Assembly: GCA_002385575.1 (NCBI GenBank)
Contig: DGDS01000002.1
Location: forward strand, 29,371-93,370
Length of the DNA: 64,000 bases
Reading direction: 5' to 3'
Origin: Bacillales bacterium UBA3946
GTDB taxonomy: Bacteria; Bacillota_I; Bacilli_A; ML615J-28; CAG-698
Below the pieces are notes generated by a model. It did no database searches and was not told the DNA's origin. It saw nothing but the letters and a program-made list of their open reading frames with translations. This document shows positions 4,335 to 62,550 of the stretch, in pieces. The translations under genes were made by a program, and so were the position numbers. Numbering within the stretch: position 1 is the first letter of the stretch; every line of letters begins with the position of its first letter.

Positions 4335-6074
4335 ATGACGAGGCTGCAGGAAAAACTGAACTCCTTGCCGAAAAAGCCTGGCTGCTATCTGATGTACAAC
4401 CAGGCGCGGGAGATCATCTACGTCGGCAAGGCCAAAAACCTCTTCAACCGCGTAAAATCATATTTTACCGGCGTTCACGACGCCAAAACGACGAAACTGG
4501 TCGAAAACATCGCCGATTTCGAATACATCATCACCTCGTCGGAAAAGGAAGCGTTCATCCTCGAGATGAACCTGATCAAGAAACATAACCCGAAATACAA
4601 CATCATGTTCACCGACGATAAAAAATATCCTTATATCGCGATTGGATCCGACCAGTACCCGCGGCTGTATTACACGCGTGACATCAAGAAAAAGGGGAAG
4701 TACTTCGGCCCTTATCCGCACGCGGCCGCCGCGAAGGAAATCGTCGAACTGCTGAACCGGATCTATCCGCTGCGCAAGTGCCGCATCATTCCGAAGAAGG
4801 AATGTCTTTATTATCATCTCGGGCAATGCCTGGCCCCCTGCATCAACGAGGTTTCCGAAGAAGAATACCAGATGATGCTGGATGAGATTGCCGTCTTTCT
4901 TAACGGCAACTCCAAAGCATTGGAGCAGAAACTTGATAGTAAGATGCGCCTGGCGGCGGACAATCTGCAGTTTGAGAAAGCGCTCGAATACCGGCAGATG
5001 CTCGAAAGTCTGAAAACGGTCGCCGAGAAACAAGTGATGGAAATGAGGATCAAGGATACCGATGTATTTTCTTATCATTGCGATGGGCAGTACGTCGGCA
5101 TCCAGGTCTTCCACATCCGCAGTGAGAAAACGATCGGCAGCGACGATTACCTGTTCGAACTGATGGGCGAACCGGAAGAGATCTTCATCAATTTCATCGG
5201 CCAGTTTTACATTACCCATAACAACCCCCTTCCCCGGGAGATCCTGCTGCCGCCGGTGGACCTTTCTGGCCTTGACGAGGAAATAAGGAACCGGATCGTC
5301 ATCCCCAAACGCGGGCAGAAGAAAAAATACGTCGACCTGGTGACGGAAAACGCCCGGGAAAAGTTAGCGCAGCTTTTGAAAATCAGGAAGAAGAAACTGG
5401 AGAAGACGCTCGGCGCCGTAAACGAACTGAGCGAACTTTTGGGCATCAAGCCGCCCCTTTACATCGAGGCGTTCGATGTTTCCAACATTCAGGGATCGTA
5501 CTCCGTCGGCGCGATGGTCGCCTATCTTGACGGCGCCCCTTCCCGCAAAAATTATCGCAAGTATCGGATCAAGACGGTCAGCGGCGCCGACGACGTCCAC
5601 TCGATGTATGAAATCGTCACCCGGCGATACCGGCGGTTACGCGACGAGGGCGCGCGCCTGCCCGACCTCGTCATCGTCGACGGCGGCCGGCCACAGGTGG
5701 ACAGCGCCGAAAGGGCTCTCACCGCCCTGGAACTTGAGATCCCCGTTCTCGGTCTCGGCAAGGATGACCGTCATCGGACGTCGTATCTGGTGTTCAGGGG
5801 CGGGGAAATCCATCCCGACAAAAAGTCCAATGCGTTTTTCTTCCTGGAAAACCTTCAGGACGAAGTGCATCGCTTCGCCATCACTTTTTACCGGCAGACC
5901 CATTCCCGCGCCGTCCTGGCGTCGAAACTGGATGCGATCAAAGGCATCGGCAAGGTCCGGAAGAAGCAGATCCTCGCGCTTCTGAAGGAAGCCGATCGCG
6001 AGAATCTTGAAAGCCGGTTGAAAGAACTGCATCTTACCGACGAACAAATACAAGAAATAAAAAAAGTGGTGTAG
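4335..6074 (+). CDS. uvrC: Excinuclease ABC subunit C
   Basis: N-terminal GIY-YIG domain (GCYLMYN...IYVGKAKNL), a UvrBC-interaction region and a C-terminal RNase H-like/HhH region. 579 aa. Confidence 0.9.
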   Translation: MTRLQEKLNSLPKKPGCYLMYNQAREIIYVGKAKNLFNRVKSYFTGVHDAKTTKLVENIADFEYIITSSEKEAFILEMNLIKKHNPKYNIMFTDDKKYPYIAIGSDQYPRLYYTRDIKKKGKYFGPYPHAAAAKEIVELLNRIYPLRKCRIIPKKECLYYHLGQCLAPCINEVSEEEYQMMLDEIAVFLNGNSKALEQKLDSKMRLAADNLQFEKALEYRQMLESLKTVAEKQVMEMRIKDTDVFSYHCDGQYVGIQVFHIRSEKTIGSDDYLFELMGEPEEIFINFIGQFYITHNNPLPREILLPPVDLSGLDEEIRNRIVIPKRGQKKKYVDLVTENAREKLAQLLKIRKKKLEKTLGAVNELSELLGIKPPLYIEAFDVSNIQGSYSVGAMVAYLDGAPSRKNYRKYRIKTVSGADDVHSMYEIVTRRYRRLRDEGARLPDLVIVDGGRPQVDSAERALTALELEIPVLGLGKDDRHRTSYLVFRGGEIHPDKKSNAFFFLENLQDEVHRFAITFYRQTHSRAVLASKLDAIKGIGKVRKKQILALLKEADRENLESRLKELHLTDEQIQEIKKVV

Positions 6075-6076
6075 TG

Positions 6077-6103
6077 ACCTCCTATTCCTTTCTGCATATT
6101 ATA
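6077..6103 (+). promoter_or_regulatory. Putative sigma-K-type promoter for gerE (AC-16 nt-CATATTATA)
   Basis: Seen in sequence: AC at about 6077 and CATATTATA at about 6095-6103, with a GGAGG RBS at about 6118 and ATG at 6130. The Bacillus sigma-K consensus is AC-16/17-CATAnnnTA, and gerE is sigma-K dependent in B. subtilis. Confidence 0.45.
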
Positions 6104-6129
6104 ATAATGGATAATATAGGAGGGATAGC

Positions 6130-6348
6130 ATGTATGCACAAAAATTTCTAACAAACCGGGAAAGAGAAATATTCAAACTATTGATTGCCAACTATGACAC
6201 GACAGAAATCGCGGAAAAACTGAAGATCAGCGAGAAAACTGTTAGAAACCATATATCCAACGTCATTCAGAAACTGGGCGTTAAGGGACGCAGTCAAGCC
6301 ATATTGGAATTAATCCGGATCAAAGAATTATCGCTTGATAATAAATAA
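6130..6348 (+). CDS. gerE: Sporulation transcription regulator GerE (LuxR/FixJ-type HTH, 72 aa)
   Basis: Near-identity to the B. subtilis GerE core: TNREREIFKLL...ISEKTVRNHISN..QKLGVKGRSQAILELIRIKEL. Confidence 0.85.
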   Translation: MYAQKFLTNREREIFKLLIANYDTTEIAEKLKISEKTVRNHISNVIQKLGVKGRSQAILELIRIKELSLDNK

Positions 6349-7213
6349 CGAAAGGATTAGCATGAAAGTTTACGGTAAAATCGTCAAGACGCTTCCCAAG
6401 GAAAGGATCATCAAGGTTCTAGGACAAAACAAGATCCACTATTTATACATGTCGCGGAAGTTCTTCAAGGATTTCGGACCATATTTTTATTACAACCCCT
6501 ATGTCTTCGTCAACGTCAGCGCCGAGAAAAAGCAGTTCGGGGATTACCACTGCCAGGAAATCGATTCCTTCAACAAGATCGTGCAAAGCACCAAGCGCGA
6601 AAAAATCGTATATTACAACCTGGACGCAATCAAGAAAGGGGTAAGGAACCTCCTGCTCAACACCAAAAACAAGATGTTTCTGGACCTGGAGTATTCCCTT
6701 CCCCCGTATTACCAGACGTTCAACCACGTCGCCGAGATCGTGCAGTACGGAATCGTTATCGAAGACGAGAACGGAAACATCGTTTTCGAGGACGGCGCCC
6801 TGGTGAAGCCCCAAAAAAAATACGCCCTGAACCGGCGCACGTTGAAATTCATCAACAGGAAAGCGGAGGATTTCGACAACGCCTGCACGTACGGCGAGTT
6901 TTACAACCTGATCAAGTGGTGCATCGCCAAGTACGACGTGAAGATCATCGCCTGGGGGCGGAATGACATCCTTGCCCTGGAAAACTCCTTCAAGATCAAC
7001 CGCATCAACGACCTTGACATCAGGAACCGTTATGTCAACTTCATGCAGGTCATTAAAAACTATTACAACATCAAAACCGACCTTGGTCTTTTTAACACCT
7101 ACCAGGAAATAAGCGGTGTCGTCATGGAGCCGCAGAAACACGACGCCCTTGAGGACGCGATGCTCGTGCGGGAGATTTACCGGATCTTCAAAGAAAAGGT
7201 CTTGAGCGAATGA
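6335..7213 (+). CDS. DEDDh 3'-5' exonuclease, KapD-like, with an unrecognised ~105-aa N-terminal extension
   Basis: Exo I FLDLEYS, Exo II IAWGRNDILAL, Exo III HDALEDAML. The whole C-terminal domain is co-linear with B. subtilis KapD. The start overlaps the gerE stop by 14 nt, which implies translational coupling. Confidence 0.7.
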   Translation: MIINNERISMKVYGKIVKTLPKERIIKVLGQNKIHYLYMSRKFFKDFGPYFYYNPYVFVNVSAEKKQFGDYHCQEIDSFNKIVQSTKREKIVYYNLDAIKKGVRNLLLNTKNKMFLDLEYSLPPYYQTFNHVAEIVQYGIVIEDENGNIVFEDGALVKPQKKYALNRRTLKFINRKAEDFDNACTYGEFYNLIKWCIAKYDVKIIAWGRNDILALENSFKINRINDLDIRNRYVNFMQVIKNYYNIKTDLGLFNTYQEISGVVMEPQKHDALEDAMLVREIYRIFKEKVLSE

Positions 7214-7230
7214 CTTACCGTAACAAGAGT

Positions 7231-7270
7231 AAAAAAACAGTCAAGTTCAAAAGCGAACTTGACTGTTTTT
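7231..7270. terminator. Bidirectional rho-independent terminator between the KapD-like gene and rnj
   Basis: 12-bp perfect stem ACAGTCAAGTTC/GAACTTGACTGT, flanked by an A-run on one side and a T-run on the other. Confidence 0.7.
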
Positions 7271-8963
7271 AATAATTCATGATAACCGGGATGATCATCG
7301 GCCGTTTTTCCGTTTTCTCGTAAATGTAGTTGCCCAGTTCATGGGTGATAATGTTGTTCAGGTAGTTGGCGTGGAACCGTTTGGTGGAACGGAAATAGTC
7401 GTTGTAGATCTGTTCGGCGCGGCTTTCGATCTCGGACAGCAGCGCTTCCGAATCCTTCAGGTATATGAAGCCGCGGCTAACGACGTTGGGTTTCTTCGTC
7501 AGTTTCCGGTTCTTCGCCGTAAAGACGATCGCGACCATCCCGTCGTCAGAAAGGATCTTCCGCTCCTTGATGACGGTGTTGTCGATGTCAAAACGGTCGG
7601 AATCGATATAAATGCTTCCCGACTGGACGGCGTAATGGGAGAACACCTTGTTCTCGCTGAAGGTCAGAACTTCGCCGTTGTCGAGGATGTGGCAATTTTC
7701 CGGAGCGACCCCGGTCTCCACGGCCAGCTGGGCGTGGCGCTTGAGCATCGAGTAGAGCCCGTGGATTGGCATGAAATGTTTCGGTTTGGTGAGCGAAAGC
7801 ATGATCATCAATTCGGTCTCGCCGGCGTGTCCCGAGGTATGGGTGTCGGTGAGCGGACTGTTGACGATGACGTTGCATCCGGCTTTGTAAAGCTTATTGA
7901 TGATCCGGTTGATCGCCTCCTGGTTGCCCGGGATCGGGGAAGAGGAAAAGACGATCGTGTCGCCGGGGATGATCTTGATATGGCTGTGGCTCCCGTCGGC
8001 GATCCGCGACAGCGCCGCCAAAGGTTCGCCCTGGGAACCGGTGCTGAGGACGGTGATCTCGTTAGGCGGAAGGTTTTTAAACTCCTTCACCGTCACAAAC
8101 GTCCCGCGGGGTGCGTTGATGTACTTGTATTTCTGACTCACGGCGATCGTTTTTTCCATGCTCCGTCCGAAGACGATGACCTTGCGATTGTGCGCGATGC
8201 TGGCGTCGACGATTTGCTTGACGCGGTGAACGTTGGAGGCAAAGGTCGAGATGATGATCCGCCCGCTGATGTTGCCGAAGATGGTTTTGATGCTTTCGCC
8301 GATCTTTTTTTCCGAGGAGGAAAACTTGCTGATGTGGGCGTTCGTCGAATCGGAAAGCAGACACAACACTCCCGCTTCGGCGTAACGGGTCAGCTTGCCG
8401 TAGTCGGCGTGTTCGGTGAGTGGGTTGAAATCGAATTTGAAATCCCCGGTGTGGAGGATGTATCCCAAGCGCGTCTTGATGGCGATGCCCGAGGAATCGG
8501 GGATGCTGTGGACGGTGCGGAAAAACGACACCTCGAAGTTTTTGAATTTATAAATGGAGTCGTTGTCGTATTCGATAATGTTGATCGGGATATTGCTGAA
8601 TTCGGCCATCTTGATCTTGATGAGATTCACGGCAAGCCCGCTTGCGTAGACGGCCGGAATCTTCACATCGCGCAAAAGGTAGGGGATGCCGCCGATGTGG
8701 TCCTCGTGTCCGTGGGTTATGAAAAGGCCGACGATTTTGTCTTCGTTGTTTTTCAGGTAGGTGTAATCGGGGATGATGTAGTCGACCCCGTAGTTGTTGT
8801 CGGGAAACATGATGCCGGAATCGATGATGATGATCTCATCCTCGCATTCGATGACGTACATGTTTTTCCCGATTTCGTCGAGACCGCCCAACGCGAAAAC
8901 CTTGATATTGTCATCGTTGAAACGCTCGATGATCGGGCGGCTTTTTTTCGTGTTTCTATTCAT
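7269..8963 (-). CDS. rnj: Ribonuclease J (metallo-beta-lactamase/beta-CASP RNase)
   Basis: HGHEDHIGG motif and beta-CASP and C-terminal domains. The likely start is ATG at 8963 (MNRNTKK, with an AAGGAG RBS) rather than the ORF-track start at 9035. Confidence 0.9.
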   Translation of the reverse strand: MNRNTKKSRPIIERFNDDNIKVFALGGLDEIGKNMYVIECEDEIIIIDSGIMFPDNNYGVDYIIPDYTYLKNNEDKIVGLFITHGHEDHIGGIPYLLRDVKIPAVYASGLAVNLIKIKMAEFSNIPINIIEYDNDSIYKFKNFEVSFFRTVHSIPDSSGIAIKTRLGYILHTGDFKFDFNPLTEHADYGKLTRYAEAGVLCLLSDSTNAHISKFSSSEKKIGESIKTIFGNISGRIIISTFASNVHRVKQIVDASIAHNRKVIVFGRSMEKTIAVSQKYKYINAPRGTFVTVKEFKNLPPNEITVLSTGSQGEPLAALSRIADGSHSHIKIIPGDTIVFSSSPIPGNQEAINRIINKLYKAGCNVIVNSPLTDTHTSGHAGETELMIMLSLTKPKHFMPIHGLYSMLKRHAQLAVETGVAPENCHILDNGEVLTFSENKVFSHYAVQSGSIYIDSDRFDIDNTVIKERKILSDDGMVAIVFTAKNRKLTKKPNVVSRGFIYLKDSEALLSEIESRAEQIYNDYFRSTKRFHANYLNNIITHELGNYIYEKTEKRPMIIPVIMNY

Positions 8964-11285: not shown

Positions 11286-11420
11286 TTAGAATCTTCCGAC
11301 AGCGGCTGACCCGATAATCACCAATAAAATGAACAATACAAGGACAAGCGCATATCCGTAACCGCATCCCCAACCGCTAGTCACCGGATATCCGCAGCCT
11401 AATCCATATGATCCGTACAT
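11286..11420 (-). CDS. YjcZ-family small sporulation protein (44 aa). It is not in the ORF track because it is shorter than 60 aa.
   Basis: Hand translation: MYGSYGLGCGYPVTSGWGCGYGYALVLVLFILLVIIGSAAVGRF. It has a Gly/Tyr-rich N-terminus and a hydrophobic tail typical of YjcZ-like peptides. An AGGAGG RBS lies upstream, the upstream -10 region reads CATATACTA (sigma-K-like), and the downstream hairpin GGAGT..ACTCC plus T-run forms a terminator on the minus strand. Confidence 0.5.
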   Translation of the reverse strand: MYGSYGLGCGYPVTSGWGCGYGYALVLVLFILLVIIGSAAVGRF

Positions 11421-11563: not shown

Positions 11564-11860
11564 CTACATCGGGTAATCTTCTGGGATGTGCTCGTCTTCG
11601 ACAATCGAATAATCAGAAGTGTCGCGGATTCGCAAATAATTCTCGATTCTGATGATTCTTTTCGCCAGGTTGTTTATCCTTCTCCGGTTCTCCATGATTT
11701 CCATCTGCAGCCGGTTGCTCTGGATCTCGGGATACATCGAACTCATGTTCGGATCGGACATCATCGGGGGAGACTGCGGATAAGGCGAGGGCATGGGGCC
11801 GAATCTTGGGTCATAAGCGTTATGCGTATAGAAACGTTGATGCGCTTTCCTGTTGAACAT
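11564..11860 (-). CDS. Hypothetical Pro/Met/Ser-rich protein with a C-terminal coiled coil, possibly a spore coat protein
   Basis: 98-aa ORF with a GGAGG RBS. A sigma-K-type motif lies upstream (AC-17-CATATTATA, plus-strand coordinates about 11881-11908). The overlapping plus-strand ORF 11540-11878 is judged spurious. Confidence 0.45.
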   Translation of the reverse strand: MFNRKAHQRFYTHNAYDPRFGPMPSPYPQSPPMMSDPNMSSMYPEIQSNRLQMEIMENRRRINNLAKRIIRIENYLRIRDTSDYSIVEDEHIPEDYPM

Positions 11861-11930
11861 CGGAACCTCCTTTTCTAGTTTATAATATGGCGCAAGCGCT
11901 TAAAATGTGAGTTAATTATGGTGATGTTGC

Positions 11931-12647: not shown

Positions 12648-12685
12648 TTCCGGAAAGCGAATAAATTATATTGAGGGGGTGCTGT

Positions 12686-13057
12686 ATGCAATCAAAGATG
12701 GATGAGTTTCGCGAGTTCGTAAGAAGGCATCCGAAAATCCGCGACGAGGTCCGGGCGGGAAGACGCACCTGGCAGAACATCTACGAGGAATGGGTGATTT
12801 ATGGCGAGGATGACGCCCAGTGGTATGATTACCGCGAAGAGCCGCAGACCGGAAATCCCGTCGGCGGAAACAATATCTCCCTGAACGTCGACTCCATCAG
12901 GAACATCATCGGCTATATCCAGAAAATTGATCCTGACAAACTAAACCGCACGCTCAACTCCATTCAGAAAGTAATCCAGATCGCGCAGACTTTCGGTTCC
13001 CGGCAAACGCACCGGACGCCGTATATAACCTCTCCCTACAACGATTGGTGGGATTGA
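12686..13057 (+). CDS. ylbD: YlbD-like putative spore coat protein
   Basis: FREFVRRHPKIRDEVRAGRRTWQNIYEEWVIYGEDD is co-linear with the B. subtilis YlbD N-terminus. ATG at 12686 with a GAGGGGG RBS (the ORF track begins at 12671). Confidence 0.55.
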   Translation: MQSKMDEFREFVRRHPKIRDEVRAGRRTWQNIYEEWVIYGEDDAQWYDYREEPQTGNPVGGNNISLNVDSIRNIIGYIQKIDPDKLNRTLNSIQKVIQIAQTFGSRQTHRTPYITSPYNDWWD

Positions 13058-13058
13058 G

Positions 13059-13289
13059 TTGCGCGATGAGATAATCGAGAAGTTATATAATAACGAACAG
13101 TACCTGGATTACCTGCGCCGCCACCCAAAATGGTATTATTATCTGGATCTGGACCCAGGCTATTTCAAGGAATTTGAACGGGTCGTGAAAAAGGCGCTGA
13201 AGCTTACGACCTACGACAAACTCGAAGCGATAAAAAGACAAGTCAACTTCGCGAGCGCGATGATCAATTATTTCACCAGTTCCAGATAA
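13059..13289 (+). CDS. ylbE: YlbE-like small protein
   Basis: 76 aa, TTG start overlapping the ylbD stop, adjacent to ylbD as in Bacillus (LRRHPKWYYYL). Confidence 0.4.
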   Translation: MRDEIIEKLYNNEQYLDYLRRHPKWYYYLDLDPGYFKEFERVVKKALKLTTYDKLEAIKRQVNFASAMINYFTSSR

Positions 13290-19939: not shown

Positions 19940-20080
19940 AAACAGAAAAATTAAGGTGAAGCTAAAAGGCTTTGCCTTTTTGTTTTGTCATGACATATTG
20001 AGGATTCATGCAATAGGGTTACCCGCTTTTTTGTGTTGCCCAATTTTGTCTTCTTTCATACTATAATACGAGGTGAAAAA

Positions 20081-21346
20081 GTGGAGAAATTCCATTTAAT
20101 CGGCATCAAGGGAACGGGGATGTCCGCCCTGGCGGGAATCCTGAAGGATCTGGGACATGTCGTCACGGGGAGCGACGTTGCGGAGGATTTCTTTACCGCC
20201 AAGAAACTCAAGGCGAAGAAAATCAGGACGCTGCCGTTTTCCGAAGCCAATATCCGTCCCGGTAAGACATATATCGCGAGCAGTTGTTATCGGGACGATC
20301 ATGTCGAAGTCGCCGCCGTGAAAAACCAGGGGCTCCCTTTTTATTACTACCATGAATTCATCGAAAGTTTTTTTACCGCACCGAAAATCGGCGTTTCCGG
20401 AACCCATGGGAAGACGACGACCACAAGCCTGATCGCGAAGTTCTTCGAGGATCGGAAGGTAACGTATCTGATCGGGGATGGGACGGGAAAGGGAACCAAG
20501 GACGCGGAATATTTCATATTCGAAGCCTGCGAATATCGCAACCATCTTTTGCAATACCGGTGTGATTACCTGGTCATCAACAATATCGATTTCGACCACC
20601 CGGACTTTTTCCAATCGATCGACGCGGTGCTTGCAACTTTTCAAAAGGCGGCGGATAATTCCCGGCACCTGATCATCAACGCCGACGACGAGCATTGCGC
20701 GAAGATCGCGCACCCCGATAAAACGACCTTCGGCATGAACGAAGCCGATGTCCGCGGCCGGATCATCGAGGAACACAGGGCAGGATATATCCTGGAAGCG
20801 GATGTTAAGGGAGAAAAATACGAGTACTATCTTCCGTTTGCCGGGACGCACATGATTTACAATTTCCTCGCGGCCCTGACCGTCTGTTACCTGCACGGGA
20901 TTGATTTGCCGTCGCTTCAGGATAAACTGCTCGATTACCAGCGGCCTTCCCGGCGCATGGAGGAGTACTTCTATTACGACAACGTCATCATCGACGATTA
21001 TGCCCATCATCCGCGGGAAATCAAGATGTGCCTGGACGCCATCCGGCAAAGCTACCCGGACAAGGAAATCGTCGTCATCTTCCAGCCCCATACCTACAGC
21101 CGCACCATGCAAATGAAAAAAGCATTCCGGGAAGCCCTGTCCGGGGTCAAACTATATCTTGCCAGGACGTTTTCCTCAAAGCGGGAAGCCGAGAACCGGC
21201 ACCTTGAGACCGCCGTCTTCCGTATTTTTCCCGGGGCGAAAAGGTTCCATGAGAAAAGCTTGCGGGAAATCCGAAAACTCCGCAATTCGGTGATACTGTT
21301 CCTGGGCGCCGGAAACATTGACAAATATATCAAACAATTGTTATGA
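20081..21346 (+). CDS. murC: UDP-N-acetylmuramate--L-alanine ligase
   Basis: HLIGIKGTGMSALA P-loop and Mur ligase domains. GTG start at 20081, preceded by a TATAAT box and an AGGTGA RBS. Confidence 0.9.
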   Translation: MEKFHLIGIKGTGMSALAGILKDLGHVVTGSDVAEDFFTAKKLKAKKIRTLPFSEANIRPGKTYIASSCYRDDHVEVAAVKNQGLPFYYYHEFIESFFTAPKIGVSGTHGKTTTTSLIAKFFEDRKVTYLIGDGTGKGTKDAEYFIFEACEYRNHLLQYRCDYLVINNIDFDHPDFFQSIDAVLATFQKAADNSRHLIINADDEHCAKIAHPDKTTFGMNEADVRGRIIEEHRAGYILEADVKGEKYEYYLPFAGTHMIYNFLAALTVCYLHGIDLPSLQDKLLDYQRPSRRMEEYFYYDNVIIDDYAHHPREIKMCLDAIRQSYPDKEIVVIFQPHTYSRTMQMKKAFREALSGVKLYLARTFSSKREAENRHLETAVFRIFPGAKRFHEKSLREIRKLRNSVILFLGAGNIDKYIKQLL

Positions 21347-38261: not shown

Positions 38262-38500
38262 AATACCAAAGCGATGATGAAGAAGGGAGTAATGGCGCTC
38301 TTTTTGCTCCAGGGAATTGGGACCGCGACTGGAAGTCCCATGCAAAACTCGTCATGAAATTCGTCTTCGGAGCGGTTCTAGACAAACCCGCAGAAATGCG
38401 TTATCAAGATTGAGGGCAACATTTTTTTATGTTGAACTAAGGTGGTACCGCGGAGATTCCGTCCTTAACGTGAACGTTAAGGACTTTTTATTTTTCTAGG
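38262..38500 (+). promoter_or_regulatory. T-box riboswitch leader (Phe specifier UUC) regulating pheS-pheT
   Basis: Promoter TTGCGA-17-TATAAT at about 38226-38254. Stem I region with GAAATTCG (UUC codon). Conserved T-box sequence AACTAAGGTGGTACCGCGG at about 38437-38455. Terminator GTCCTTAACG-tgaa-CGTTAAGGAC followed by TTTTTATTTTT directly before the pheS RBS. Confidence 0.8.
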
Positions 38501-45172: not shown

Positions 45173-45529
45173 ATGATAAGGGTGATGTTTTTGCTTAAAG
45201 ATAATGGTCCGTTGATGTTTATTAACACGGTCAGCACTCAGGTAAACGAAGTCCCGCATCAAAAGATCTTCGACAGCCGGACACAGAAAGTGCGGAACAT
45301 CAAAACGAAGTCGAAGCTGGAATTCCTGGAGGATAGGAAACTGAATAATATCATCGAGATGTATCAGAAAAACCGGCCCGTTCTCTGCAATATCATATGT
45401 GAGGGAGAAGAGATCATCGGCATTCCCTTTAAAAAGACCGACCGCATACTTTATGTAAAAATCGATGAAGAAAGCGTCGAGAAAATATATCTACACAATA
45501 TCACCGATATTGTTATAATCAGGTTTTAA
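45173..45529 (+). CDS. Hypothetical small protein, possibly YolD-like. The start is uncertain because the first codons lie in a terminator stem.
   Basis: The C-terminal pattern ICEGEEIIGIPFKKTDRILYVKIDEESVEKIYLHNITDIVII resembles YolD-like proteins. The 11-bp stem AAACATCACCC/GGGTGATGTTT at 45158-45198 overlaps the annotated start. Confidence 0.25.
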   Translation: MIRVMFLLKDNGPLMFINTVSTQVNEVPHQKIFDSRTQKVRNIKTKSKLEFLEDRKLNNIIEMYQKNRPVLCNIICEGEEIIGIPFKKTDRILYVKIDEESVEKIYLHNITDIVIIRF

Positions 45530-45930
45530 TAGGGTTTACATCTTTTTTTACATTCTTCGCAGCAGATCGGCTCGAAGCACTGCAGCCCGCAGACGCAGCA
45601 AAGATTCAGAATCGCGGTATGATTCGTGCAGACTAATTTCGGCCCGCACTGCTTGAGAATCCTGAGCGTGACGCAGTCGCCCCTCAGTTCCTCAATCCGG
45701 AACACGTTCGAGGTTTCGGTCGTTTCCGGAATTTCCACCGTGAACGCCGTCCCGTTGCACAGATAGAAAGTAACGGGCCGCGTGTTGAACAGTTTCTTCG
45801 TTAGAGGGCTGTCGCAACCCTCGCATTCGTCTTCAAGGATTGCTTCCTTCTGCAGCTGGTCGATTTTCAGCACGATGTCATGGATGCAGTTTTTGCAGGT
45901 GGGGAAGGATGAACATTTTTCTCGAAGCAT
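45526..45930 (-). CDS. CotZ/CotY-family cysteine-rich spore coat (crust) protein
   Basis: Co-linear with B. subtilis CotZ: C..IVLKIDQLQKEAILEDECEGC, FRIEELRGDCVTLRIL, and a C-terminal Cys cluster. A sigma-K-type promoter lies upstream. Confidence 0.65.
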   Translation of the reverse strand: MLREKCSSFPTCKNCIHDIVLKIDQLQKEAILEDECEGCDSPLTKKLFNTRPVTFYLCNGTAFTVEIPETTETSNVFRIEELRGDCVTLRILKQCGPKLVCTNHTAILNLCCVCGLQCFEPICCEECKKRCKPY

Positions 45931-45951
45931 TTATTCACCTCACTTTCAGTA

Positions 45952-45979
45952 TAGGATATGAAAGGGGGCGGATAATTGT
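45952..45979 (-). promoter_or_regulatory. Putative sigma-K-type promoter for the cotZ-like gene (AC-17-CATATCCTA)
   Basis: Minus-strand reading ACaattatccgccccctttCATATCCTA, followed by an AGTGAGGTG RBS and ATG at 45930. Confidence 0.4.
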
Positions 45980-60557: not shown

Positions 60558-60586
60558 ACCATAGTCATCTATGGTTTTTTCATTAT
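60558..60586 (+). terminator. Terminator after rpsR
   Basis: AAACCATAGTCATCTATGGTTTTTTC. Confidence 0.7.
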
Positions 60587-60600
60587 ACAGAGGAGAGAAT

Positions 60601-62550
60601 ATGAAAAGAAGAATATGGAGTTTCATCGCCCTGATATTGATGACGGTTTTCTGCATCAGCTGCGTTGACGACGAGCGGAAGACGATCGTCATCACGGAAA
60701 CGAGCGTGCAGGTTATAGTCGGGGATACGTATGAACTTACCTGCCGCCTGAACGGTATCGAAGCCGACGAACTTGAGTATGAATTCAGCGTCGATGGAAT
60801 CGTCGCGATTGAAGGCTTCACGATCGAGGGTCTGGCCCCGGGGACGACAATCCTGACCATCAGGCATAACGCTGACGATAAAATTTTCGATACGGTAACG
60901 ATCGAGGTCACAGGCGCGCCCAGCGTCGCCTTCACCGCGGCGGAATTGATCCTCAAGGTCGGCGAACGCAAGAGCCTCCCGATAACCTATGCAAATATCG
61001 ACTCTTTCGAAGAACTCGGCTTCACGGTAAGCGCAGAGGGAATCGTGACGCTTGACGAGGAGGACATTATCGGGGAAGCGCCCGGAGAAGTCGAAATTAC
61101 TGCCTATTATCTTTTCGACAATTCCGTTGCCGCGACCCTTAAGGTAAAGGTCGAAGCGGAAAAACGGATTTCCTTCTCCATCGAACGGTTGGAGTTGGAA
61201 GCAGGCGAAAGCGCGGAGTTACCCTTGGTGACCGAGGGTATCTCCGACTTATCGGAAATTGCGTTTTCCTTCACTACGGAAGGAATCGCGCTTCTGGAGC
61301 AACGGACCGTGACCGGAATCAATCCGGGGGAGACCGCGCTTACGGTCAGACTTATAGCCGATGAAGACGTGGCCGCGGAAATCACGATTCTCGTCAAACC
61401 CCGTTCTTACACGGTAAACGATCCGGAATACTGGATCGAGCACCTTAGCCCGGAATATGATCCGGACGAAGTGATCATGACGCCCGCGCAGATCGCCCTT
61501 TATAATCAAAACATCTATAACAATACCTCCGCCACGAAGGTCGTGAATCCGCTTGCTTATCCGACGACGATCTCGGGCACGGAAGTAAGACAGAAGATCG
61601 AGACGTACAACGGTCTGATTGATCAATACCAGGTCTTCGACGACAGTCATTATTTGAGCCAGAATGAAAAAACAACGATTAAGAATAATCGCGCCCTTGA
61701 ACAAATTCCGGCGACGGTTACGGTTCGCTATGGGATCATCACCGAGTTCGCGGCGGTGCGCAGTTTCCCGACGAATTGCATAGCCGGCTCCTATAGCCAG
61801 GACCGTTTCCAGGAAACCGGTCTGAACGTAGGCGAAGGAGTCGCGGTTTATCACGTAACCGCAGACGGTCAATGGTTCTTCGTCCAGGCGATGAATTACT
61901 TCGGCTGGGTTGAAGCAGGCAAGATCGGGTTGTGCTCCCGGGAAATGCTTCTTTCCTTCATCGATTCGGAACAGTTCATCGTCGTGACCGCCGATACGCT
62001 TAACATCGATGGGCGGATCGTCCGGATGGGTCAGGCGCTTCCGTATGTTACTAAAAATGATCAGGAATACCAGGTGCAGATGCCGCGGCGGGACGCGGCC
62101 GGAAATCTCGTCCTTCACCAGATAGCAGTCGCGCGCGACGATGAAAAAGTGCATGACGGCTATCTGCCGTACACGCTGCGCAACGTCTTTATTCAGGCGT
62201 TTAAAATGCTTGGCATTCCTTATAGTTGGGGAGATAATTATGTTTACGGACGCGACTGCTCCTCGACGCAGAACGCCGTCTACGCCTGTTTCGGGTTCAA
62301 AATGCCGCGCAACACCTCCCAGCAAAGATCGATTCCCCAGTACGCGGTGACCATGAATATCAACGAAAGTTACATCAAGAACAACCTGCGTCCCGGCGCC
62401 TTGATTTTCTCGAGCGGCCATGTGATGATGTATATCGGCGATGACGACCAGGGCAACGCCTACATTTATCACAATACCTCACCGAAATGCAAGGTTCAGA
62501 AATTCCGGGAATACAGTTCCCAGATCATCGCATACCTGCGATTGTATTAA
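60601..62550 (+). CDS. Lipoprotein with N-terminal Ig-like (Big_2-type) domains, an SH3b-like region and a C-terminal NlpC/P60 cysteine peptidase domain
   Basis: Lipobox FCISC. Catalytic triad context DCSSTQ...GHVMMYIGDD...IYHN. It occupies the yybS position between rpsR and gdpP. Confidence 0.75.
   Translation: MKRRIWSFIALILMTVFCISCVDDERKTIVITETSVQVIVGDTYELTCRLNGIEADELEYEFSVDGIVAIEGFTIEGLAPGTTILTIRHNADDKIFDTVTIEVTGAPSVAFTAAELILKVGERKSLPITYANIDSFEELGFTVSAEGIVTLDEEDIIGEAPGEVEITAYYLFDNSVAATLKVKVEAEKRISFSIERLELEAGESAELPLVTEGISDLSEIAFSFTTEGIALLEQRTVTGINPGETALTVRLIADEDVAAEITILVKPRSYTVNDPEYWIEHLSPEYDPDEVIMTPAQIALYNQNIYNNTSATKVVNPLAYPTTISGTEVRQKIETYNGLIDQYQVFDDSHYLSQNEKTTIKNNRALEQIPATVTVRYGIITEFAAVRSFPTNCIAGSYSQDRFQETGLNVGEGVAVYHVTADGQWFFVQAMNYFGWVEAGKIGLCSREMLLSFIDSEQFIVVTADTLNIDGRIVRMGQALPYVTKNDQEYQVQMPRRDAAGNLVLHQIAVARDDEKVHDGYLPYTLRNVFIQAFKMLGIPYSWGDNYVYGRDCSSTQNAVYACFGFKMPRNTSQQRSIPQYAVTMNINESYIKNNLRPGALIFSSGHVMMYIGDDDQGNAYIYHNTSPKCKVQKFREYSSQIIAYLRLY

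Follow-up and report, generated by a model that had tools for sequence, protein, structure and literature searches.

The window, i.e., the whole 64-kb stretch of DNA that was analysed, carries uvrC, gerE and a gene for a DEDDh-type 3'-5' exonuclease in this order on the plus strand, and rnj follows in the opposite orientation. For both gerE and the exonuclease ORF, conserved homologues number in the hundreds to thousands. Coordinates of the genes and of the signals around them are listed in Table 1.

Table 1. Features of the uvrC-gerE-exonuclease region (positions counted from the first letter of the window).
Feature	Position	Strand	Description
uvrC	4335..6074	+	Pfam GIY-YIG, UVR and UvrC_RNaseH; final gene of the housekeeping array nusA-ylxR-L7Ae-infB-rbfA-uvrC
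Putative sigma-K-type gerE promoter	6074..6103	+	-35 GTGACC, 16-nt spacer, -10 CATATTATA (6095-6103); pattern match
Inverted repeat	6078-6085 / 6116-6123	+	CCTCCTAT / ATAGGAGG; read directly from the sequence
gerE	6130..6348	+	72-aa stand-alone LuxR-type HTH protein; SD AGGAGGG at 6118-6124
Exonuclease RBS	6350..6356	+	GAAAGGA, inside the 13-nt gerE-exonuclease spacer; read from the sequence
Exonuclease residues 1-100	6362..6661	+	Predicted OB fold, then linker helix (87-100)
Exonuclease residues 101-283 and stop	6662..7213	+	ERI-1/3'hExo/KapD-type DEDDh 3'-5' exonuclease domain
Bidirectional intrinsic terminator	7233..7270	.	-23.1 kcal/mol, z = -7.1; shared with convergent rnj
rnj (RNase J)	7269..8963	-	Pfam RNase_J_b_CASP and RNase_J_C; public gene call of 564 aa; convergent neighbour

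Both its sequence and its position identify the ORF at 6130-6348 as a genuine orthologue of GerE, in line with the identity proposed in the earlier note. Residues 7-59 of its product are covered by Pfam GerE (PF00196, 1.1e-19), and a receiver domain is absent. When compared with PDB, the product scored 91.8 bits (9e-26) against 6jqs, which was deposited as a 'DNA-binding response regulator' and is presumably the GerE of Paenisporosarcina, and 81.7 bits (1.4e-22) against 1fse, GerE of B. subtilis, while other LuxR-type proteins reached 43.4 bits at most. Both the B. subtilis protein and the 75-aa protein of 6jqs are likewise stand-alone HTH proteins of about 72-75 aa, and the recognition region is nearly identical in them and in the window protein (ISEKTVRNHISN..QKLGVKGRSQA). 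Identity with Bacillus GerE is 64% over 67 aa. In relatives with a UvrC of just 61-81% identity, gerE is still 91-99% identical. As in Bacillus, uvrC precedes the gene and has the same orientation. The Bacillus order is uvrC-lysC-yslB-sdhCAB-ysmA-gerE with 6.2 kb between uvrC and gerE, and that of Geobacillus is uvrC-yslB-sdhCAB-gerE with a gap of 4.3 kb; in the window the distance is 55 nt, and gerE follows uvrC directly, without the sdh and lysC genes between them. The next gene after gerE also differs, being ysmB in Bacillus and the nuclease gene, at 13 nt, in the window. The gerE gene of Bacillus is reported to be monocistronic.

Upstream of gerE, the motif AC-N16-CATATTATA was recognized at 6077-6103 by pattern matching, with AC at 6077-6078. 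The element CATAnnnTA precedes gerE in each of the 27 distinct loci, 24-40 nt before the start codon, and AC stands 16 or 17 nt from it in 21 of these regions. In Bacillus (GTCACC-N17-CATATGATA) and Geobacillus (GTCACC-N16-CATACGATA), gerE has a promoter of the same architecture as in the window, GT(C/G)ACC-N16/17-CATAnnATA, only the leader of the window gene is short, with about 26 nt from the -10 element to the ATG. In B. subtilis the gerE promoter is sigma-K dependent. This likeness, together with conservation across diverged loci, bears out the sigma-K-type promoter suggested previously; sigma-K dependence itself is a reading of the sequence. A weak sigma-A promoter is an alternative reading of the same region, with GTGACC-17-TATTAT matching at 9 of 12 positions. 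The pattern AC-N16/17-CATAnnnTA is not enriched in the 64-kb window as a whole, where three matches were observed and 3.9 are expected, so the signal consists in the placement of the matches and not in their number: each ends 21-27 nt upstream of a start codon, and the genes behind them are gerE, a CotZ-like gene and a 98-aa ORF.

The inverted repeat that spans 6078-6123 might, speculatively, form an anti-SD:SD hairpin solely in RNA reading through from uvrC, with the -10 element in the loop. Its duplex energy is -15.3 kcal/mol (p = 0.04), and across the 27 loci the anti-SD duplex has a mean z of -1.48, with p < 0.05 in 11 of them. As a strong structure the hairpin was rejected, because the single-sequence fold is unexceptional (z = -0.64) and just the cross-locus duplex test is suggestive.

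The exonuclease gene starts with ATG at 6362, 13 nt past the gerE stop codon, and encodes a protein of 283 aa up to 7213. The earlier note had described a 292-aa protein overlapping gerE by 14 nt and translationally coupled to it. That version begins with TTG at 6335, which is merely the first in-frame start of the mechanically delimited ORF, and it was rejected because all homologues in the alignment begin at a conserved MK(V/I)YGK, a Shine-Dalgarno sequence precedes the ATG, and public gene calls give 283 aa. This RBS is conserved in relatives with spacers of 11-20 nt. As there is no overlap, coupling through it has to be given up as well. The spacer is too short to hold a promoter, and a scan of 5900-7213, i.e., from uvrC to the end of the exonuclease gene, found no terminator-like site on the plus strand. 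The bidirectional terminator noted earlier behind the exonuclease gene was recovered as a very stable hairpin, called as a terminator on the minus strand by the scan and consisting of a core stem followed by TTTTT on the plus strand. From this sequence layout, the nuclease gene probably shares a late mother-cell transcript with gerE. Such co-transcription is not universal, as some relatives with gerE have spacers of 58-82 nt and sigma-A-like promoters preceding the nuclease gene.

For the N-terminal part of the exonuclease, said before to match nothing recognizable, an OB fold is predicted, a type of domain that binds single-stranded nucleic acids. Strands are predicted at residues 2-11, 16-20, 25-29, 47-59 and 62-76 and a helix at 32-44, so that the helix separates strands 3 and 4 of a five-stranded beta-barrel, as in the OB layout, and the domain resembles SSB, PriB and RPA. 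None of 14 family members gave a Pfam match for this domain at E < 0.01, and a profile search with it recovered solely proteins of OB/DEDDh architecture. This family occurs only in Izemoplasmatales, Acholeplasmatales-like and related reduced Bacilli.

The C-terminal part has an ERI-1/3'hExo-like fold and an intact DEDDh active site, as D108, E110, D202, H260 and D265 are invariant in the alignment of 25 homologues. Residues 102-277 matched the NCBIfam KapD model PRK07748 (207 positions), which is the sole NCBIfam match of the window protein, with 57.1 bits against an equivalog cut-off of 169 bits. KapD is the best curated match for all 25 family members, with 2.3e-23 as the best E-value; the comparison was made with the curated model. 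The domain is thus KapD-like, in agreement with the earlier description, and the protein is at most a putative KapD orthologue, since the score lies below the equivalog cut-off and an extra domain is present. With 283 aa and the OB domain, the window protein is not a single-domain KapD of about 205 aa.

KapD of B. subtilis is a spore-crust 3'-exoribonuclease that binds CotY and destabilises sigK mRNA, and kapD is activated by GerE under sigma K (PMC11736430). Besides the ERI-1-type DEDDh domain, the two systems share a link to GerE, in B. subtilis through activation of kapD and in the window through the position of the nuclease gene behind gerE and a sigma-K-type promoter, and a CotY/CotZ-family gene is found in the window, CotY being the partner of KapD. 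They differ in gene linkage: the window gene is attached to gerE and uvrC, while kapD is unlinked, and no exonuclease gene was found within 10 kb of gerE in Bacillus, which agrees with the earlier note. The activation of kapD by GerE in B. subtilis (PMC11736430) makes the linkage in the window more meaningful. The eukaryotic ERI-1/3'hExo proteins (PDB 1w0h, 1zbu) carry SAP as the accessory domain instead of an OB fold, and the bacterial protein of the window is just 14-18% identical to them. An OB fold on a 3'-5' exonuclease is known in Bacilli from YhaM of B. subtilis, in which the catalytic domain is an unrelated HD domain. By analogy with KapD and ERI-1, RNA is the more likely substrate of the window nuclease, and the OB domain may grip a single-stranded 3' tail and feed it into the DEDDh site.

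Among the 77 species-level loci that include upstream DNA, the gerE-exonuclease pair is present in 26. Loci with gerE occur on both sides of the root of the tree, and at least about nine changes of state are required, from which it follows that the order uvrC-gerE-exonuclease is ancestral to the clade and gerE was lost about nine times. The nuclease is retained in all lineages without gerE, which sets it apart from KapD. In two collinear relatives of this kind that were examined, YjcZ, YlbD, YlbE and a small gene are absent too, and one of them is also without the SASP gene. The earlier proposal of a sporulation-specific nuclease does not agree with this distribution, and retention in asporogenous lineages points to a core role of the enzyme outside sporulation.

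An alternative reading places the nuclease in DNA repair as a partner of UvrC, where it would act as an OB-fold 3'-5' ssDNA exonuclease and digest either the damaged strand after incision or the oligonucleotide that is excised, with gerE merely lodged in a repair operon. For this, uvrC is the upstream neighbour of the exonuclease gene in every related locus covering upstream DNA, the loci without gerE have gaps between the two genes as small as 5-11 nt, or overlaps of 4-10 nt, and the OB domain has its likeness to SSB, PriB and RPA. A precedent exists in mycobacterial Cho-like GIY-YIG nucleases fused to an epsilon-type 3' exonuclease (PMC1564403), where a UvrC-type nuclease is likewise associated with a DEDDh 3' exonuclease; in the window, by contrast, the genes are separate, the nuclease is KapD/ERI-1-like and not epsilon-like, and gerE stood ancestrally between them. 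This ancestral order marks the tight uvrC-nuclease junctions, which differ in sequence between clades, as secondary deletion scars. Furthermore, KapD, ERI-1 and ERI2, the closest proteins in sequence and structure, are RNases, and in many Izemoplasmatales loci the nuclease gene has a TGnTATAAT promoter of its own behind uvrC. Taken together, a dedicated repair function is improbable.

The host had been implied to be a member of Bacillales; it is labelled 'Acholeplasmataceae bacterium' at NCBI, and its lineage is that of small-genome Bacilli, with related contigs up to 1.5-1.8 Mb. Such a reduced-genome host also distinguishes the gene from Bacillus gerE. Sporulation genes found in the window are a CotZ-like gene at 45526-45930 (PF10612), YlbD_coat, YlbE and a YjcZ-family gene, the last with a score above its cut-off, and murC-like and NlpC/P60 genes are present as well. 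YjcZ, YlbD and YlbE lie near every gerE-containing locus examined on that side and a SASP gene lies near one; locus L001 ends short of YlbD and YlbE, and the window itself supplies both. Within the 64-kb window, none of sigK, spo0A and the spo stage genes was observed. The host appears to keep a late mother-cell sporulation regulon. A generic LuxR solo in a wall-less, non-sporulating mycoplasma-like host was rejected as an explanation of the small ORF, because of its GerE-specific similarity, position and promoter and because of the murC-like, NlpC/P60, CotZ-like and YjcZ genes.

We favour, as a whole and with a probability of about 0.55, the reading that the nuclease of the uvrC-gerE-exonuclease array is produced alongside GerE at a late stage in the mother cell, and that it also has a vegetative housekeeping role. 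The sigma-K-type promoter would give transcripts spanning gerE and the nuclease gene, and with both genes on such transcripts the nuclease would be made with GerE at that late stage. The linkage could then be a hard-wiring in cis of what in B. subtilis is activation of an unlinked kapD by GerE. In the window lineage, housekeeping expression may come from uvrC read-through. This second role is suggested by the roughly nine losses of gerE, all of which left the nuclease in place, either tightly coupled to uvrC or with its own TGnTATAAT promoter, and by the loss of neighbouring sporulation genes in the two relatives examined.

The adjacency of the two genes could also be a functionless by-product of genome reduction, in which loss of lysC, yslB, sdhCAB and ysmA, and of genes after gerE, put a housekeeping nuclease beside gerE, and sigma-K read-through into it is incidental. 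The gene order infB-rbfA-uvrC-...-rnj-def-rluB-rpsP is conserved across the whole region regardless of function, the nuclease outlives each loss of gerE, and sigma-A-like promoters precede it in some lineages that keep gerE, all of which fits this explanation. It is nonetheless rather unlikely, as gerE and the nuclease gene stay together in all 27 distinct loci with gerE, even where upstream or downstream neighbours are rearranged, and coincidence is hard to accept for a nuclease whose closest curated family in 25 of 25 members is KapD, the product of a GerE-activated gene in B. subtilis (PMC11736430).

A more far-reaching variant of the favoured reading, which we consider doubtful, is that late mother-cell gene expression is held back by an ancient brake of two parts, GerE and a KapD-type nuclease, with transcription as the target of GerE and mRNA, such as that of sigK, as the target of the nuclease. 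The pairing would be older than the divergence of Bacillaceae from the reduced-genome Bacilli and would have been fused into one sigma-K operon in the latter, with the OB domain as a substitute of this clade for control by substrate or partner. After sporulation was lost, the nuclease would have been recruited repeatedly to a vegetative RNA or DNA role beside uvrC.

A piece of the terminal sporulation circuit, gerE with its Bacillus-like promoter, thus survives in genomes filed as Acholeplasmataceae or 'Bacilli bacterium'. The physical attachment of a KapD-type gene to gerE suggests that the GerE-KapD connection is old. The OB-fold/DEDDh nuclease, kept through at least about nine independent losses of gerE, makes a good candidate core enzyme of RNA or DNA processing in these organisms. 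The gerE promoter motif offers a simple handle for the late mother-cell regulon in uncultured lineages, and in the window it already flags the CotZ-like gene and the 98-aa gene of unknown function.

In the automatic annotation at IMG, the pair is named as a GerE-type regulator and KapD. A search with Rfam gave nothing near the gerE locus, and its sole match in the window is a T-box at 38265-38469.

By sequence and by position, the 72-aa regulator encoded downstream of uvrC is GerE, as the earlier note had read it. It matches the Pfam family GerE (PF00196) at 1.1e-19. Its best matches among all solved structures are 6jqs (75 aa, 9e-26; entry title "DNA-binding response regulator"), which we take to be Paenisporosarcina GerE, and then B. 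subtilis GerE 1fse (1.4e-22), with the next LuxR-type domain at only 43 bits. Over 67 residues it shares 64% identity with a Bacillus GerE, with hardly any change in the recognition region. Its position was compared with the true gerE loci of Bacillus and Geobacillus. The gene order is trxA-uvrC-lysC-yslB-sdhCAB-ysmA-gerE-ysmB-racE-gerM-rph in a B. subtilis-group genome (single strand except yslB) and uvrC-yslB-sdhCAB-gerE in Geobacillus. The uvrC-gerE adjacency is this order minus the intervening metabolic genes, so the window gerE is also a positional orthologue. The family is already known, and the IMG name of the protein is already "LuxR family transcriptional regulator of spore coat protein".

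Features of the window, with positions and strands
Feature	Position	Strand	Remarks
uvrC	4335-6074	+	upstream neighbour of gerE
gerE promoter	6074-6103		sigma-K type
Inverted repeat, arm CCTCCTAT	6078-6085	+	8 bp
Inverted repeat, arm ATAGGAGG	6116-6123	+	8 bp
gerE (72-aa ORF)	6130-6348	+	
GAAAGGA	6350-6356		SD-like
Nuclease gene	6362-7213	+	283 aa
Hairpin	7233-7270		terminator
RNase J gene	from 7269	-	convergent on nuclease gene
YjcZ-family sporulation gene	11286-11420	-	44 aa; TIGR01732, above cut-off
98-aa ORF with promoter	11564-11908	-	proline-, methionine-, tyrosine-rich (MFNRKAHQRFYTHNAYDPRFGPMPSPYPQSPPMM...)
YlbD_coat (PF14071) and YlbE-like gene pair	12671-13289	+	between rluB and rpsP
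murC-like ligase	20033-21346	+	319 bits, just under equivalog cut-off of 335
T-box leader	38265-38469	+	Rfam RF00230, 105 bits; upstream of pheS-pheT
CotZ/CotY-family gene, promoter included	45526-45979	-	134-aa cysteine-rich product; PF10612, 31 bits (cut-off 24)
SH3b-NlpC/P60 hydrolase	60571-62550	+	

The sigma-K consensus is AC, 16-17 nt and CATAnnnTA, and B. subtilis transcribes gerE from a promoter that depends on sigma K. The sigma-K logo was described by Eichenberger et al. 2004 (PMC517825). The window gerE promoter is GTGACC-N16-CATATTATA, compared with GTCACC-N17-CATATGATA in the Bacillus gerE promoter region and GTCACC-N16-CATACGATA in that of Geobacillus. In 27 distinct gerE-upstream sequences of related loci, from genomes with UvrC only about 45-80% identical to that of the window, CATAnnnTA is always present 24-40 nt 5' of the gerE start codon, with its middle three bases variable. 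AC lies exactly 16 or 17 nt 5' of CATA in 21 of them. Judged from sequence, the pattern of the window and these loci is the sigma-K consensus, and the shared Bacillus/Geobacillus architecture bears out the sigma-K-type promoter first proposed. A weak sigma-A promoter (9/12 matches) is an alternative reading, but it leaves the invariant CA unexplained. Across the whole 64-kb window the sigma-K-type pattern is not above chance, with three matches versus 3.9 expected. All three are intergenic and correctly oriented, with 21-27 nt between their ends and a start codon; the genes behind them are gerE, the CotZ-like gene, and the 98-aa proline/methionine-rich ORF.

The gerE leader also has an inverted repeat with complementary arms. 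Arm ATAGGAGG contains the gerE SD, CCTCCTAT is the pyrimidine tract upstream of the -10 element, and the loop that separates them holds the -10 element. RNA begun at the sigma-K-type promoter would be missing the upstream arm, which uvrC read-through RNA would carry; speculatively, a hairpin on the latter could block GerE translation in vegetative cells. Arm-arm duplex energies in the 27 loci are on average below shuffled controls (mean z = -1.48), with p < 0.05 in 11 of them, a modest cross-locus support. The window's own leader fold is unexceptional (z = -0.64).

The nuclease gene had been described as overlapping gerE. Its mechanical ORF indeed opens at TTG 6335, a start ruled out by the conserved N-terminus, public gene calls and the SD-like GAAAGGA. 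The alignment of 25 homologues starts at the conserved MK(V/I)YGK, public calls give 283 aa, and GAAAGGA precedes ATG 6362; the overlap is thus replaced by a 13-nt gap. The terminator reported after the nuclease gene was read correctly. Its hairpin has -23.1 kcal/mol (z = -7.1) and stands between a run of A and a run of T. No terminator-like site was found on the + strand between uvrC and this hairpin. Since the spacer is also too short for a promoter, transcripts from the gerE promoter would run on, and any of them would almost certainly have to enter the nuclease gene. Late in the mother cell, the nuclease would be made alongside GerE. The kapD gene of B. subtilis is unlinked and is activated by GerE under sigma K; its product, a 3'-exoribonuclease, binds CotY and destabilises sigK mRNA (PMC11736430). 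In the window the nuclease gene is instead attached to gerE, which looks like a cis version of the GerE-kapD link. In the B. subtilis crust, KapD partners with CotY. The CotY/Z-family gene of the window, with the same promoter type, is 39 kb away.

The KapD-like domain was recognized correctly. The window nuclease has zero Pfam matches, and RNase_T (PF00929) is matched by 19/25 family members. Its sole NCBIfam match is the KapD equivalog model (residues 102-277), with 57 bits versus a cut-off of 169; this model is matched by all 25 members, and the IMG name is already "sporulation inhibitor KapD". Residues D108, E110, D202, H260, and D265, the catalytic ones, are invariant in the 25 homologues. 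AlphaFold2 models the protein with pLDDT 91 and pTM 0.83. The N-terminus, once thought to match nothing known, is a predicted OB fold, with the topology beta1-3, helix, beta4-5 when residues 1-103 are modelled alone (pLDDT 83, >89 across residues 1-70). The conserved basic and aromatic residues K6, R15, Y41, Y47, F49, F70, and K72 would fit single-strand binding. A profile search of this domain in 1.84 billion proteins revealed only 86 cluster representatives. All full-length matches are 276-310 aa with the domain N-terminal, and because each has the same layout, the domain is private to this architecture. Both the OB-DEDDh nuclease and the gerE-nuclease operon are of known kinds, each in a new variant.

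In all related loci that include upstream DNA, uvrC is upstream of the nuclease gene, and 26 of 77 species-level loci have gerE in between. GerE is markedly conserved, being 91-99% identical where UvrC is 61-81% and the nuclease 61-87% identical. In a neighbour-joining tree of 79 nuclease sequences (midpoint root), gerE presence is patchy, with at least 10 state changes by parsimony, or about nine discounting locus L026, whose upstream DNA is hidden by a contig edge. Loci with gerE are on both sides of the root, and Candidatus Bathyoplasma, which has gerE, is placed among Izemoplasmatales. From this distribution and the Bacillus outgroup, the ancestral order is uvrC-gerE-nuclease, and loci without gerE arose by repeated deletion. 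The pairing is ancestral, common within its clade, and already auto-annotated. In L090, a related locus with gerE, FakA-like, MCRA and TetR genes, three unrelated genes, are inserted between rbfA and uvrC (4933-7756). The uvrC-gerE-nuclease unit is intact there and is the most stable unit of the region.

The def-rpsP side was examined in the gerE-carrying window with its JGI copy L001 and in loci L002-L004, L089, and L090. YjcZ, a small minus-strand gene, YlbD_coat, and YlbE are between def and rpsP in every one; L001 ends short of YlbD and YlbE, and the window supplies both. In L089, an alpha/beta-type SASP gene (PF00269; 487-702, +) adjoins thiI. The collinear gerE-less loci L087 and L088 are without all the genes named between def and rpsP, and the L087 interval matching the SASP position has no SASP gene. 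As these sporulation genes are gone with gerE, gerE belongs to a co-lost sporulation set and the nuclease does not.

The nuclease, earlier bound to sporulation, outlives it and is not sporulation-specific, because gerE-less lineages keep its gene. In some of them it follows uvrC at 5-11 nt or overlaps with it, and in others it is behind its own TGnTATAAT promoter, e.g., tatgttataat in Izemoplasmatales. An extended -10 T(A/G)TG(N)TATAAT is conserved in their 28-30-nt uvrC-nuclease spacers (L057, L062-L064, L066, L069, L071, L077, L081, L084), a sequence that gives the nuclease its own putative vegetative-type promoter. In the window lineage, as no terminator intervenes, vegetative expression would come from uvrC read-through. 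KapD and ERI-1 point to RNA as the substrate. A DNA-repair role is a less probable alternative: linkage to uvrC and the predicted SSB-like OB fold would fit it, and mycobacterial Cho-epsilon fusions (PMC1564403) are a precedent, but the ancestral gerE between uvrC and the nuclease gene weakens it.

The host is not a Bacillus: the NCBI proteins HHZ17845.1 (regulator) and HHZ17844.1 (nuclease) are labelled "Acholeplasmataceae bacterium". Nuclease homologues come only from MAGs and isolates labelled Acholeplasmatales, Izemoplasmatales, Mollicutes, Mycoplasmatota, "Bacilli bacterium", Coprobacillus CAG:698, Liberiplasma and similar, except for a few MAGs whose labels are evidently stray, e.g., Bacteroidales and Staphylococcaceae. 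For these orders, Field, Bowerman and Hugenholtz (2024; PMC10868615) predicted a mixture of sporulating, intermediate, and non-sporulating species that arose through many independent losses. Despite its label, the host probably has peptidoglycan, given the murC-like ligase and the NlpC/P60 hydrolase. The CotZ-like gene has a perfect sigma-K-type promoter, AC-N17-CATATCCTA, ending 22 nt before its ATG. The YjcZ-family gene is preceded by CATATACTA without AC at sigma-K spacing. The 98-aa ORF gave no family match; its promoter, AC-N17-CATATTATA, ends 21 nt before the start. A small gene is at its position in relatives with gerE and absent in those without. The 98-aa product may be a coat protein.
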